Origin: an uncultured Chloroflexia bacterium
GTDB taxonomy: Bacteria > Chloroflexota > Limnocylindria > Limnocylindrales > CSP1-4
Assembly: GCA_963724635.1 (NCBI GenBank)
Contig: CAVRVI010000013.1
Span: forward strand, 155,937 to 219,936
Reading direction: 5' to 3'
Length of the DNA stretch: 64,000 bases
Shown: piece after piece, positions 27,487 through 47,799 of the stretch
Position numbering within the stretch: the first letter of the stretch is position 1
Layout: every line of letters begins with the position of its first letter
Position numbers and translations under genes: made by a program
Notes under the pieces: generated by a model
Told to the model about the DNA's origin: nothing
The model's input: only the letters and a program-made list of their open reading frames with translations
The model's database searches: none

Positions 27487-28242
27487 TCAGGCTGGCCCCG
27501 CCGGACGAAGCGACCGGGCGATCGCGCCGGCGGCATCGATCAACACGCGAGATGCTCGGGTCCGCCAGGCCAAGGTGGCCCGCTCGGCCGGGGCGAGGAC
27601 GGCGAGCGAGGCGACGATCCCATCGTCTCGCATGACGGGAACGGCGATCGTCACGGTGCCGGGAATCACCGCCCCTTCACTGCGGGCGATGCCGTCCGTG
27701 AGGATGGCGGCCAGGTCCGCCTTGAGGGCGTCCGCGTCCTCGACCATGCCCAGGACCTCGTCCTGAACGTCCGACGGCGCGTACGCCAGCAACACGTGGG
27801 CGATCGCGCCACGGTCGAGTGGCGCGGCGACACCGGGCTCCAGCGCTACCCGCAATGGGTGGGCCGATTGCTGCTGGTGGAGGCACACGGCCCCCAGCCC
27901 CAGGCGTCGGCTGATGACCGCCGTCTCGCCGGTCTCCTCGGCCAGCATGGCGAGTACCGGGTCCGCCCGGCGGATGAGCTCCTCGGAGCTGACGGTGGCG
28001 CCGCCGCCGATCAGCAGTCGCGGCCCGAGTCGGTAGCCGCCGTCGTGGCGGTCGACGAACCCGAACTCGGTGAGGGTCCGCAGGTAGCGATAGATGGTGG
28101 ACAGCGGCGTGTCCAGCAGCGTGCCGAGCTCGTCGGCACGGATCTCGCCGCGATCGGCGATGGTCAGGAACACGCGCAGGCCGCGCGCGAACGAGGTGTC
28201 CTCGGCGGCTTCTTCGGGCGGGCGGTCGCGGGCGGTGGGCAT
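27487..28242 (-). CDS. IclR-family transcriptional regulator
   Basis: ATG at 28242 in ORF 27487..28353. ...FARGLRVFLTIADRGEIRADELGTLLDTPLSTIYRYLRTLTEFGFV... followed by an IclR effector domain. Confidence 0.8.
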   Translation of the reverse strand: MPTARDRPPEEAAEDTSFARGLRVFLTIADRGEIRADELGTLLDTPLSTIYRYLRTLTEFGFVDRHDGGYRLGPRLLIGGGATVSSEELIRRADPVLAMLAEETGETAVISRRLGLGAVCLHQQQSAHPLRVALEPGVAAPLDRGAIAHVLLAYAPSDVQDEVLGMVEDADALKADLAAILTDGIARSEGAVIPGTVTIAVPVMRDDGIVASLAVLAPAERATLAWRTRASRVLIDAAGAIARSLRPAGPA

Positions 28243-28319
28243 GGGCGCGTGGATCCCCGATGAATCGACGAGGCCCGCCCGTCGCCGGGCGGGCCTCGAT
28301 CGGTGGTGCGAGGGGGGGA

Positions 28320-29327
28320 CTAGGAGGCCAGAAGGCCCTGCTCGGTCAGCCACGCCTTGGCGACGTCGCCGACGTCCTCGTTGTCGACGCCGACCTTGAC
28401 GCCGAGCTTGGTGAGCTCCTCGGTGGTCATCTTGGCCGACACGGCGTCCAGGATGGCTGCGAACGCGGCCGGGTCCACCTTGGCGAGGTAGTCGTCACGG
28501 ACGACCGGCGCGATGTTCTCGGCCGGCTGCGTGTCGAGGTCGTCTTCCAGCACGATGAAGCCGTTCTGGACGATGGCCGGCTGCGTGGAGCACAGCCATG
28601 CGAAGTCGATGGCGTTGCCCGCGAGGGCGGTCGCGATCGGCGCGTCGCAGGCCGCGAGCGCTTCACGCTGCTTGGGCGGATAGGTGATCCCGTACGCCTC
28701 CAGCGCACCCTTGCACAGCGGGTTGGCGTCGCAGTCCGGCGGCAGGCCCCAGCGGAGCTGGTCCTGGACGGCGGCGAGCTCGCTCATCTTGGTGAGCTTG
28801 AGCGCGTCCGCGGTGTCCTTGCGGACGACGGCCGCGTTGGTGTCCTCACCGGGAGTGATGCCGAGGACCGTGGCCAGGCCACCCTTGGCGTCGAAGATCG
28901 CCTGGAGGGAGCTCCGGTTGGTCTCGCCGTCGCCGGTGATCAGCTGCGTGTTGTAGTAGCCGAGACCCGACCCGACGTACTCGGGGACGAGGTCGACCTG
29001 GCCGGCCTCGAACGCGGGAGCGCGGTCCTGGCGCGAGCCGAGGCCGAGGCTCCGGGTGACTTTGTAGCCGGCGGCCTCGAGGGCCTGGGCGTACAGCTCA
29101 GCCATGAGCTTGGACTCGTAGAAGTTGTCCGAGCCGATCCGGATATCGGCCTTCGGCGCCTCGCTGGGGGCGACCGACGGCGCGACCGACGGGGCCATCG
29201 AGGCCGCCGTCGTCGGTGCCGCGCTCGCGGCCGTCGACGGTGCACTGCTGGCACCCGTCGACGAGCAGGCGGCGAGGGCCACCAGCAACGTCGCCCCCAG
29301 GGCGAACAAGCGGTTCGTCCGCATCAT
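28320..29327 (-). CDS. glycine betaine/choline-type ABC transporter substrate-binding lipoprotein (OpuC/OsmX family)
   Basis: ORF track, 335 aa. MMRTNRLFALGATLLVALAAC carries the lipobox. ...IRIGSDNFYESKLMAELYAQALEAAGYKV...DLVPEYVGS. Confidence 0.8.
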   Translation of the reverse strand: MMRTNRLFALGATLLVALAACSSTGASSAPSTAASAAPTTAASMAPSVAPSVAPSEAPKADIRIGSDNFYESKLMAELYAQALEAAGYKVTRSLGLGSRQDRAPAFEAGQVDLVPEYVGSGLGYYNTQLITGDGETNRSSLQAIFDAKGGLATVLGITPGEDTNAAVVRKDTADALKLTKMSELAAVQDQLRWGLPPDCDANPLCKGALEAYGITYPPKQREALAACDAPIATALAGNAIDFAWLCSTQPAIVQNGFIVLEDDLDTQPAENIAPVVRDDYLAKVDPAAFAAILDAVSAKMTTEELTKLGVKVGVDNEDVGDVAKAWLTEQGLLAS

Positions 29328-29423
29328 AGGTACTCCTCTCGTTCCTCCTCCGCCGCCTGATCGACCGCGACGGTCCGCGTACCTTAGCAGCGGTTGAGGT
29401 CGATGTCCTCCATCGCGACCGGT

Positions 29424-46344: not shown

Positions 46345-46587
46345 TGCACACGCTCGTCTGCCCGCGCTGTGGCCGTCGCTCGCTGGACGAGTTCGTGTTC
46401 GGCGGGGAGCGACGCGCCGTGCCGGACATCGATCACCGATCCCGACGAGCGCGACTTCGACGAGGTCTGGGTGTTCGAGAACCCGGACGGCCCCACGACC
46501 GAGCGCTGGTTCCACGCGGCGGGTTGCCGCCGCTGGCTGACCGTGCGGCGCGACACCGCCACCGACACCGTCCTCGAGGTCCGCTGA
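46344..46587 (+). pseudogene. soxD: sarcosine oxidase delta subunit; one frame break
   Basis: ATG at 46344 forms an ATGA overlap with soxB. MHTLVCPRCGRRSLDEFVFGGERRAVPDI lies in one frame and TDPDERDFDEVWVFENPDGPTTERWFHAAGCRRWLTVRRDTATDTVLEV lies in ORF 46369..46587. Confidence 0.75.
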
Positions 46588-46588
46588 C

Positions 46589-47799
46589 ATGCCGTCGCTC
46601 GCCGACCGAGCGCTCGACCTCCAGCTGCGGGATCGGATCCGGTTCGGGGTCGGAGCCATCGATGCCCTCCCCGAGCTCGTCGCCGCGGTCGGCGATGCCG
46701 GGGATGACACCGGCCGCCGCCAGGTCTTCCTCGTCACGGACCCGGGCGTGTCCGCGTCCGGGGTCATCGATCGCGTCCGTGGCGCTCCTCCAGGGTGCCG
46801 GGGTCCACGTCGGTGTCTATGCCGATGTCGAGGCCAACCCGGGCACGGCATCGATCCTGCGCGGCAGCGCGGCGCTCGTCGACTTCGGCATCGCCGGGAC
46901 GGTCGTCGTGCCGGTCGGCGGCGGTTCGTCGATCGATTCGGCGAAGGCGATCTCGCTCCACGCCGTCAACGGCGGCGACGTGCTGGAGCTGGGCTATCAC
47001 CGTGAGGACCTGGTCCCGGGTCGCCCCCTGATCGCCGTGCCGACCACCGCCGGGACCGGCGCCGAGAGCCACACGTTCGGTGTGATCACGGACGAGGCGG
47101 CCGGGCGCAAGGCGTATGTGGGCCACCCGTCCGTGCTGCCCGTCTGGACGATCCTGGATCCCGCCCTGACCGTGGGGATGCCACCGGCCGTCACGGCGGC
47201 GACCGGCGTGGACGCGCTGACGCACTCCATCGAATCGAAGCTGTCCCGCAACCCCAACCCCTTCGCCGAGGCGATGGCCTTCCAGGGGATCCGGACCATC
47301 CGGACCTGGCTGCCGCGCGCCGTCGCTGACGGCATCGGATCTGGAGGCCCGCTCGCAGATGCTCATGGCCTCGCACCTTGCGGGCCTCGGGCAGGCGAGT
47401 GGGACCGGCGTGGGTCTGGTGCACGCCCTGGGCCATGCGATCGGGACCCGCGGCCGCCTCGCCCATGGCACCGCCCTCGCGGTCGTCCTGCCGGAAGTGC
47501 TGACGTTCTACGCTGAGGAGCCCGACCTGCGCGACCGGGAGCTCAAGCTCATCGGGGTGGCGTTGGGCGCCGCTTCGCCCACGGAGACCGACGCCACCGG
47601 GGCGGTGGCCGCGATCGGAGCCCTTCGGACGTTCCTCGCCGAGCTCGGACAGCGGCCGCGGCTACGCTGCGCTCGGGTTCGACGACGCGAGTCTCGACGT
47701 CATCGCCCTCGACGCGATGGCCGACGCGGCGATCAACAATTCACCGCGCCTGCCGACGGTGGGGCAGGTCCGGCGATCCTGGGGTCCGTGCTGGACTGA
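46589..47799 (+). pseudogene. iron-containing (type III) alcohol dehydrogenase, GbsB-like candidate choline dehydrogenase; at least four frame breaks
   Basis: The segments are: MPSLADRALDLQLRDRIRFGVGAIDALPELV...FLVTDPGV (ORF 46589); ...VYADVEANPG...VVPVGGGSSIDSAKAI...AVPTTAGTGAE...DPALTVGMPP..TAATGVDALTHSIES (ORF 45648 frame); ...MLMASHLAGLGQASGTGVGLVHALGHAIG...HGTALAVVLPEVL (ORF 47359); and ALGFDDASLDVIALDAMADAAINNSPRLPT in a further frame before a return to the ORF 47359 frame. Confidence 0.75.

Follow-up and report, generated by a model that had tools for sequence, protein, structure and literature searches.

How glycine betaine loses its first methyl group is the question raised by a stretch of chromosome from an uncultured Chloroflexia bacterium (Limnocylindrales CSP1-4; assembly GCA_963724635.1, contig CAVRVI010000013.1, positions 155,937 to 219,936; the whole 64-kb stretch is called the window here), in which candidate choline-oxidation genes stand with genes for the demethylation of dimethylglycine (DMG) and sarcosine. 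The classical aerobic choline-to-glycine enzymes are GbsAB of Bacillus, the DMG oxidase of Arthrobacter and Corynebacterium and heterotetrameric sarcosine oxidase. A preliminary description had listed a divergent pair of gene arrays at 27487-47799 and had named an MttB-superfamily protein as the only methyl-removing candidate. The arrays and their inventory were borne out by Pfam and NCBIfam, as was the standing of MttB, since no S-methyl_trans (PF02574) or Rieske (PF00355) domain was found in the 64 kb by Pfam searches of the open reading frames (ORFs), a six-frame motif scan or tblastn with a betaine--homocysteine S-methyltransferase (BHMT)-like protein. On balance we think it probable that this MttB demethylates glycine betaine, passing the methyl group to a corrinoid protein whose gene lies elsewhere in the genome.

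Genes were called from third-position GC (GC3) and frame plots and identified with Pfam and NCBIfam. A genome scan gave 80 related loci, from metagenome-assembled genomes (MAGs) of Limnocylindria-type Chloroflexota and of Acidimicrobiia/Actinomycetota, and genes were counted at each locus by tblastn with 19 reference proteins against all 80; single-linkage clustering of the ORFs was rejected because run-on ORFs fused the dehydrogenase-like, sox and alcohol dehydrogenase genes described below. Intact reference gene models came from L057 and L042, which belong to other MAG series presumed to be short-read (soxA 755 amino acids (aa), a small ORF 128 aa, soxB 404 aa, soxD 80 aa and the alcohol dehydrogenase 393 aa). 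Close relatives of the window MttB number in the thousands; the best 120 are all at least 79% identical to it, and several are named Candidatus Limnocylindrales or Chloroflexota.

The mttB ORF is continuous over 521 codons, with no in-frame UAG or internal stop, and the MTTB domain of its product is full length (residues 16-516 on positions 5-500 of the 500-position model). It scores below the model for the pyrrolysine-type trimethylamine methyltransferase (Pyl-MttB, TIGR02369; 313 bits against a cut-off of 525), and its sequence places it in the non-pyrrolysine branch of the superfamily. Its best match in the PDB is 4yyc (365 bits, 39% identity), and the MtgB protein of Desulfitobacterium hafniense (2qne/9yce) matches with 332 bits at 36% identity.

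The link of MttB to the DMG and sarcosine steps, seen already in the preliminary description, proved to be very strong. At 74 of the 80 related loci, in two phyla, mttB is followed directly by a gene for a DMG dehydrogenase-like (DMGDH-like) flavoenzyme, and soxA occurs at 62 loci, soxB at 48, soxD at 44 and the iron-containing alcohol dehydrogenase (Fe-ADH) gene at 33. No pair is better conserved across the two phyla than MttB and the DMGDH-like protein (median identity 75% and 72%), and what the Actinomycetota loci retain is mttB with the DMGDH-like gene and with soxA, soxB and soxD, while the aldehyde dehydrogenase (ALDH) and Fe-ADH genes are absent and a distant enolase-family gene lies about 9 kb off in two only; among Acidimicrobiia, GMC BetA-like genes were seen in L056 and L068, and an ALDH gene also in L068. 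The DMGDH-like protein of the window scores 545-552 bits with mammalian DMG dehydrogenase (5l46/4p9s; 552 bits, E = 2e-164, for 5l46) against 311 bits with Arthrobacter DMG oxidase (1pj5), and DMG or sarcosine is a well-supported candidate for its substrate. Calling it a DMG oxidase in an oxidase-based step, as had been done, is unproven, as it lies nearer the dehydrogenase and sequence cannot tell an oxidase from a dehydrogenase.

Set beside the classical route, the cluster has the same elements, namely a type III Fe-ADH and an ALDH, a DAO-GCV_T enzyme and homologues of SoxA, SoxB and SoxD, but the NCBIfam scores are all under cut-off. The Fe-ADH orthologue of L057 has the GbsB choline dehydrogenase as its best model (260 bits, cut-off 550), SoxA and SoxB of the same locus reach 279 bits (cut-off 1164) and 416 bits (TIGR01373, cut-off 529), and the window ALDH, present at 44 of the 80 loci, scores 514 bits as betaine-aldehyde dehydrogenase (BADH, TIGR01804, cut-off 669) and higher, at 583 bits, as PuuC (cut-off 850). 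The SoxD orthologue of L057 does pass Pfam (PF04267, 70 bits against 27). Further differences from the classical enzymes are the closeness of the DMG enzyme to mammalian DMGDH, the short SoxA and the gene order A-(G)-B-D, in which the G is unverified: the small ORF that had been named soxG, and its 128-aa orthologue in L057, have no match in Pfam or NCBIfam.

From these genes the following route is proposed. An OpuC-type ABC transporter, under IclR control, would import choline/glycine betaine, the Fe-ADH and ALDH would convert choline to glycine betaine, and the non-pyrrolysine MttB would transfer one methyl group of glycine betaine to a Co(I) corrinoid protein, yielding DMG, after which the DMGDH-like flavoenzyme, together with the SoxA(G)BD-like enzyme, would take off the remaining two methyl groups as methylene-tetrahydrofolate, yielding glycine. 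The corrinoid protein, a methyl-corrinoid:tetrahydrofolate (or homocysteine) methyltransferase and a reductive activase would be encoded elsewhere in the genome, with flux presumably running from choline towards glycine. Betaine demethylation by MttB is supported by the full-length MTTB domain, the adjacency of mttB and the DMGDH-like gene, the choline-oxidation genes, the retention of the two carboxylate-binding residues described below, the corrinoid and one-carbon (C1) genes found in relatives and the precedent of MtgBCD.

That precedent comes from the aerobe Ruegeria pomeroyi, in which genetic proof has been given that glycine betaine is demethylated by MtgB (of the MttB family), MtgC (a corrinoid protein) and MtgD (Mausz et al., PNAS 2025, PMC12478193), and mtgBCD genes have been mapped across marine Proteobacteria, often colocated with DMG/sarcosine genes (PMC12478193); a 2026 paper also describes mttb, beside sox operons, as a first enzyme of betaine degradation. 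The earlier view that such a step within an aerobic pathway is not well described is therefore outdated, MttB-type betaine demethylation in aerobes having been published in 2025 (PMC12478193), and the window is probably a new example of it in a presumed aerobe and not a new kind. As in the route proposed here, a PF06253 enzyme begins the demethylation of betaine in a bacterium that respires O2, with DMG and sarcosine demethylation after it, and the partners in R. pomeroyi (MtgC, the pterin-binding MtgD, RamA/RACo, DUF1638 and a MetF-type methylenetetrahydrofolate reductase (MTHFR)) lie at other loci, whereas in other taxa they lie beside DMG/sarcosine genes (PMC12478193). The partner families are the same set as in the Limnocylindria contigs described below. 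Unlike MtgBCD, the cluster of the window belongs to Chloroflexota/Acidimicrobiia, of soil and not ocean, its MttB belongs to a subfamily that has diverged from the proteobacterial-type 4yyc (about 39% identity), and its mttB gene shares an operon with the DMGDH-like gene and soxAGBD rather than with mtgC or mtgD. For Limnocylindria and Actinobacteria with MttB and DMG/sarcosine genes, our literature search gave only a MAG survey listing mttB/mtgB as markers of anaerobic methylotrophy, and a literature search on 4YYC found nothing.

An aerobic lifestyle, with use of O2 by the host, is what the phenylacetyl-CoA oxygenase genes of the window point to. These are PaaA, PaaB, PaaC and PaaD genes at 9747-15024, and after them come genes for 3-hydroxyacyl-CoA dehydrogenase and thiolase, in what is an aerobic aromatic catabolic cluster.

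Several findings weigh against glycine betaine as the substrate, and the first of them lie in the binding pocket. In MtgB of D. hafniense, four residues form the betaine pocket: R312 and H348 bind the carboxylate, and Y97 and F356 are a cation-pi pair for the quaternary nitrogen, a pair that has been called a minimum motif for glycine betaine use; when it is altered, as in Y97A and F356L, the Km increases by several hundred-fold (Picking et al., JBC 2026, PMC13080624). The carboxylate-binding residues correspond to R351 and H386 in the window MttB and are invariant in 76 of 76 members of its clade; the aromatic pair is absent from all 76, Y97 being replaced by A, G or S (A135 in the window) and F356 by G (G394 in the window). 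R312, unlike the aromatic pair, is conserved in every characterised member that uses an acidic quaternary amine (PMC13080624), and the pocket residues therefore indicate an acidic quaternary amine as the substrate without identifying which. The comparison with MtgB (DSY3156; PDB 2QNE/9YCE; PMC13080624) runs both ways, for the two proteins share the TIM-barrel MttB fold as judged by sequence, lack pyrrolysine and keep the Arg/His pair, but identity is low, here and to 4yyc, both aromatic residues are replaced, no MtgC or MtgA gene adjoins mttB, and the genes downstream in the presumed aerobic host encode flavoenzymes, not acetogenic or sulfidogenic C1 metabolism.

The same direction is taken by a second MttB paralogue in the lineage. 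A search with the RACo protein of L049, and then contigs L081-L086, revealed a conserved operon on six Limnocylindria contigs that comprises IclR / B12-binding (~231 aa), DUF1638, Virulence_fact, Pterin_bind (~302 aa), RACo, an MTTB paralogue (513 aa) and MTHFR. This paralogue is 63% identical to 4yyc, keeps Tyr97 and is about 41% identical to the window MttB, and it could be the real glycine betaine enzyme; since an MttB closer to MtgB sits in a full corrinoid operon, the assignment of glycine betaine to the window MttB is not secure. Upstream of the operon, L084 has genes for a 1pj5-like DMG oxidase and electron transfer flavoprotein (ETF), and L085 has an ETF gene and one for a DAO-GCV_T enzyme similar to that of L084, and the operon is apparently a second, dehydrogenase-linked betaine module in Limnocylindria. 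GMC oxidoreductases were also seen upstream of it in L081, L082 and L085, and at L085 14112-19911 separate S-methyl_trans and MTHFR genes stand with one for an 844-aa MetH-like protein (Pterin_bind, B12-binding and Met_synt_B12, without a homocysteine domain) in what looks like a split methionine synthase adjoining the corrinoid operon.

Taken up fully, these points lead to the alternative that the DMGDH-linked MttB acts on some other acidic quaternary amine (proline betaine, a carnitine-type betaine, beta-alanine betaine or kinase-made phosphocholine), glycine betaine being left to the 4yyc-like paralogue or to a BHMT-type enzyme elsewhere. We regard this as rather unlikely. The lost aromatic pair and the distance of the clade from the MtgB/4yyc group (about 40% identity) speak for it, but the pair is missing from other characterised MttB members too and its absence alone is not diagnostic (PMC13080624), and the homologue of DMG dehydrogenase lies directly downstream of mttB even at loci with no kinase, ADH, ALDH or enolase gene. 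The two further N-demethylating enzymes encoded downstream fit a series from trimethyl to primary amine on a glycine skeleton, and choline-to-betaine genes co-occur.

Phosphocholine comes into consideration through an ABC1/UbiB kinase gene, which occurs at 12 of the 80 loci, each time directly upstream of mttB, and through a choline-kinase/APH-like ORF in the same place in the acidimicrobial L074 (6883-7854), both recalling the MthK/MthB system of phosphocholine use in Eubacterium limosum (Jiang et al., JBC 2025, PMC12155760). The kinase beside mttB may parallel the choline kinase MthK, in so far as a kinase gene adjoins an MttB-family gene in both. It is of another family, however, and 68 of the 80 loci have no adjacent kinase; no MthC or MthA gene adjoins, and the genes downstream suit DMG and not dimethylaminoethanol phosphate. 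The kinase gene and that for a conserved hypothetical protein of 139 aa, which has no match in Pfam or NCBIfam and is present at 11 of the 80 loci, form an insertion between the ALDH gene and mttB in the window and at 12 of the 80 loci.

Another feature on the side of a different amine is the enolase-superfamily enzyme whose gene opens the catabolic array and is conserved at 49 of the 80 loci, its role being unexplained. Its best PDB match (4ggb, 106 bits), which we take to be a proposed galactarolactone cycloisomerase, is one of only remote structural relatives, with no close characterised one. Identity as a betaine epimerase was rejected on this low best score and on finding no known betaine epimerase structure of the HpbD type among the 60 matches listed. 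It is possible, though short of probable, that the DMGDH-linked clade (~75-95% identical across soil Limnocylindria and Acidimicrobiia) is a distinct betaine methyltransferase subfamily with a rebuilt quaternary-amine pocket, which would share a corrinoid module in trans (B12 protein, pterin methyltransferase, RACo and DUF1638) with the second, 4yyc-like MttB paralogue.

The remaining points against MttB as the betaine demethylase concern its partners. No B12-binding or Pterin_bind domain was detected in the 64 kb by Pfam on GC3-supported ORFs or by a six-frame motif scan, no RACo or DUF1638 was found in the window, no corrinoid-protein or pterin-methyltransferase gene recurs within 10 kb of mttB among the 80 loci (by clustering and motif scan only), and Rfam gave only tRNAs and no cobalamin riboswitch near the cluster or the corrinoid operons. 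It is scarcely credible, all the same, that MttB works with no dedicated corrinoid protein, handing the methyl group straight to tetrahydrofolate on the neighbouring GCV_T enzymes or to free cobalamin. The lack of a recurrent partner gene and the extremely tight pairing of MttB with the folate-binding DMGDH-like enzyme would suit this, but all characterised members of the MttB superfamily methylate a corrinoid (PMC12478193, PMC13080624, PMC12155760), mtgB, mtgC and mtgD are normally dispersed in R. pomeroyi (PMC12478193), a complete corrinoid operon exists in the lineage, and candidate partners variously flank the cluster in relatives. In the Acidimicrobiales locus L071, soxD is followed by S-methyl_trans, the RACo reductive activase, Virulence_fact and DUF1638; S-methyl_trans, Virulence_fact and DUF1638 lie beside the same cluster in L056 and L080; and in L049 (Chloroflexota) RACo, MTHFR-like and formyltetrahydrofolate synthetase (FTHFS) genes lie upstream of mttB, at most 10 kb away, and no second MttB gene intervenes.

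A co-regulated BHMT elsewhere in the genome, which by the preliminary description would tell against its reading, has a partial counterpart in relatives, in so far as six Acidimicrobiia loci carry, right after soxD, a gene named by NCBIfam as betaine--homocysteine S-methyltransferase (500 bits, cut-off 338). The S-methyl_trans protein of Acidimicrobiia is nevertheless far more like MetH than like a true BHMT (151 bits with the MetH homocysteine domain against 49 bits with BHMT), and as such it matches the MtgE module of Mausz et al. Separately, L056 has at 4998-6335 a Rieske/VanA_C-type oxygenase ORF and an MFS transporter gene, about 5 kb upstream of the mttB cluster and beside the GMC BetA-like gene, and the oxygenase may give L056 a different, oxygenase-type demethylase.

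The near-complete choline-to-glycine route of the preliminary description stands as regards the presence of the genes, but as sequenced it is not intact. Nine frame breaks were found relative to relatives, in five genes (permB and soxB with two each, soxA and soxD with one each, the ADH gene with three), and DNA alignments showed each of them to be a single-base +1 insertion relative to every aligned relative (Table 1). What looked like a further frame change where the ATPase gene ends (3' end, 30851-31100) was rejected and is not counted, the alignment showing a variable low-complexity tail. The nine frameshifts look like long-read assembly errors, because all are +1, the coding signal is kept, such splits are confined to long-read 'MFD' loci and two loci with the same operon have one-copy breaks. 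Frame-split sox/ADH genes occur in 10 related loci, all of which belong to the long-read 'MFD' MAGs, while the other series (presumed short-read) have none; L081 and L082 share an operon whose genes are broken in just one of the two copies; and the broken genes of the window keep the GC3 signal and 52-82% protein identity per segment, mostly 64-82%, to the intact L057 orthologues. Three more genes of the window also look frame-broken, namely those for a luciferase-like protein (49795-50859, with an out-of-frame middle), an ATP-dependent DNA ligase (54575-55543, with the C-terminal end alone in frame) and an Aminotran_5 protein (57319-58269, with the first ~85 model positions missing), which fits a generally error-prone assembly.

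That the frameshifts are real, the cluster decaying with permB, soxA, soxB, soxD and the ADH gene as pseudogenes and only the stretch from the enolase to the DMGDH-like gene as a functional core, is very improbable. The breaks do fall into two groups, at 30.4-30.5 kb and at 44.4-47.7 kb, with none in the 12 kb from 32267 to 44369, and the inserted bases are mostly outside long homopolymers, as decay might allow. The run of nine +1 insertions with no deletions, in-frame stops or large indels, the retained coding signal and segment identity, the splits of the same genes in other 'MFD' loci and the breaks in other genes of the window all stand against it.

Table 1. Features of the cluster and of the corrinoid operon found in related contigs. 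Positions are those of the window unless a contig is named; HSP, high-scoring segment pair.
Feature	Position	Strand	Basis or remark
IclR-family regulator	27487-28353	-	Pfam HTH_IclR + IclR_C; maximal ORF, true start probably further in
OpuAC-type betaine/choline substrate-binding protein	28320-29327	-	PF04069, 133 bits
ABC permease 2 (permD-like)	29424-30215	-	BPD_transp_1; 90% identical to L001 268-aa permease
ABC permease 1 (permB-like)	30207-30871	-	Frame-broken; tblastn with L001 222-aa permease, three HSPs in three frames
permB insertions	~30376, ~30533	-	DNA alignment
proV/opuCA-type ABC ATPase	30956-32158	-	NCBIfam TIGR01186 proV, 325 bits (cut-off 326.6)
Divergent intergenic region, transporter and catabolic arrays	32159-32266	.	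Sequence read directly
MR/MLE enolase-superfamily enzyme	32267-33376	+	MR_MLE_C, 171 bits
Aldehyde dehydrogenase, candidate betaine-aldehyde dehydrogenase	33470-34888	+	PF00171, 568 bits
Conserved hypothetical protein, 139 aa	34969-35388	+	78% identical to L001 hyp137
ABC1/UbiB-family atypical kinase	35488-37191	+	PF03109, 198 bits
Non-pyrrolysine MttB-superfamily methyltransferase, candidate betaine:corrinoid methyltransferase	37211-38776	+	PF06253 MTTB, 654 bits
SRPBCC protein	38813-39274	+	Polyketide_cyc2, 39 bits
Phd/YefM antitoxin	39295-39537	+	Pfam
VapC PIN toxin	39538-39942	+	Pfam
DMG dehydrogenase/oxidase-family flavoenzyme, folate-binding GCV_T domain	39976-42444	+	Pfam DAO, FAO_M, GCV_T and GCV_T_C, all four present
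SoxA-like alpha subunit (755 aa in intact orthologues)	42441-44746	+	Fer2_4, SO_alpha_A3, GCV_T; tblastn with L057 soxA, two frames
soxA insertion	~44370	+	Alignment
Small ORF in soxG position	44679-45119	+	57% identical to L057 128-aa ORF
SoxB-like beta subunit	45128-46344	+	DAO domain split between frames; three HSPs in three frames
soxB insertions	~45560, ~46187	+	Alignment
SoxD-like delta subunit	46344-46587	+	HSPs in two frames; L057 orthologue PF04267
soxD insertion	~46428	+	Alignment
Type III Fe-alcohol dehydrogenase, candidate choline dehydrogenase	46589-47799	+	Fe-ADH + ADH_Fe_C split over ORFs; four HSPs in three frames
ADH insertions	~46785, ~47334, ~47669	+	Alignment
Corrinoid operon examples	L082 5578-13524; L084 1-13757		Limnocylindria MAG contigs; in L082, corrinoid protein at 6432-7127 and 4yyc-like MttB paralogue at 11089-12633

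The best related locus, L001 of MAG CAWHGL01, is collinear with the window over 27280-47801 at about 84% nucleotide identity, the sole exception being a 1.2-kb segment, and synteny with relatives reaches upstream to about 24.4 kb, the genes there being syntenic in 11-24 loci. GC is flat at 0.68-0.73 (about 70% G+C) across the whole window. The preliminary description had called the region an island, and its gene content and coordinates hold; given the flat GC, it is not a compositional island, nor a mobile one, but a conserved chromosomal neighbourhood in Limnocylindria.

In the minus-strand array the IclR gene is found at 28 of the 80 related loci and the transporter genes at 13-17, and the binding protein matches the NCBIfam OsmF model weakly (85 bits, cut-off 400). 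The permease ORF as called by BPD_transp_1 spans 29424-30380, and what had been described as a fused permease is two genes in relatives (222 and 268 aa in L001), merged in the window by the frame errors. The ATPase was identified correctly as of OpuCA type, but its ORF (given as 31098-32237) is replaced by that in Table 1. The intergenic region between this array and the co-directional plus-strand run of 15.5 kb would be a promoter region. Just beyond iclR, at 26887-27399 on the minus strand, is a 170-aa ORF with no Pfam match and with homologues near 24 related loci.

The 1.2-kb segment that interrupts collinearity with L001, and is absent at its junction, is an insertion of SRPBCC, Phd and VapC genes between mttB and the DMGDH-like gene, which are separated by only about 40 bp in most relatives. 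The SRPBCC gene occurs at none of the 80 related loci and is thus specific to the window, while five loci (L006, L008, L012, L024 and L050) have Phd and/or PIN ORFs at this junction, and the junction looks like a recurrent insertion site within the operon. Elsewhere in the window, a tRNA gene at 59268-59341 (Rfam, 72.5 bits) adjoins a large ORF (60290-63124) with long Pro-Thr-Pro-Lys repeats and no Pfam match, and the window closes with part of a DNA methylase on the minus strand (62177-64000).

In soil, glycine betaine and choline rank as major osmolytes and as substrates rich in nitrogen, and the Limnocylindria, Chloroflexota that are abundant there, have few members known in culture. If the reading favoured here is true, cobalamin-dependent betaine demethylation extends from marine Proteobacteria to dominant soil lineages, and betaine turnover in soil would be tied to the supply of vitamin B12; should the clade also be a distinct subfamily with a shared corrinoid, cobalamin would be a hidden requirement for the mineralisation of choline and betaine by very abundant aerobic soil bacteria. 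The notable features of the clade are its divergent binding pocket, its very high conservation, the operonic coupling to a DMGDH-like enzyme and the second paralogue in a corrinoid operon, and the divergent pocket makes it a useful test of substrate choice in the MttB superfamily. The mttB and DMGDH-like genes would then serve as a marker pair, not to be taken, as in current MAG-survey annotation, for anaerobic trimethylamine methylotrophy.

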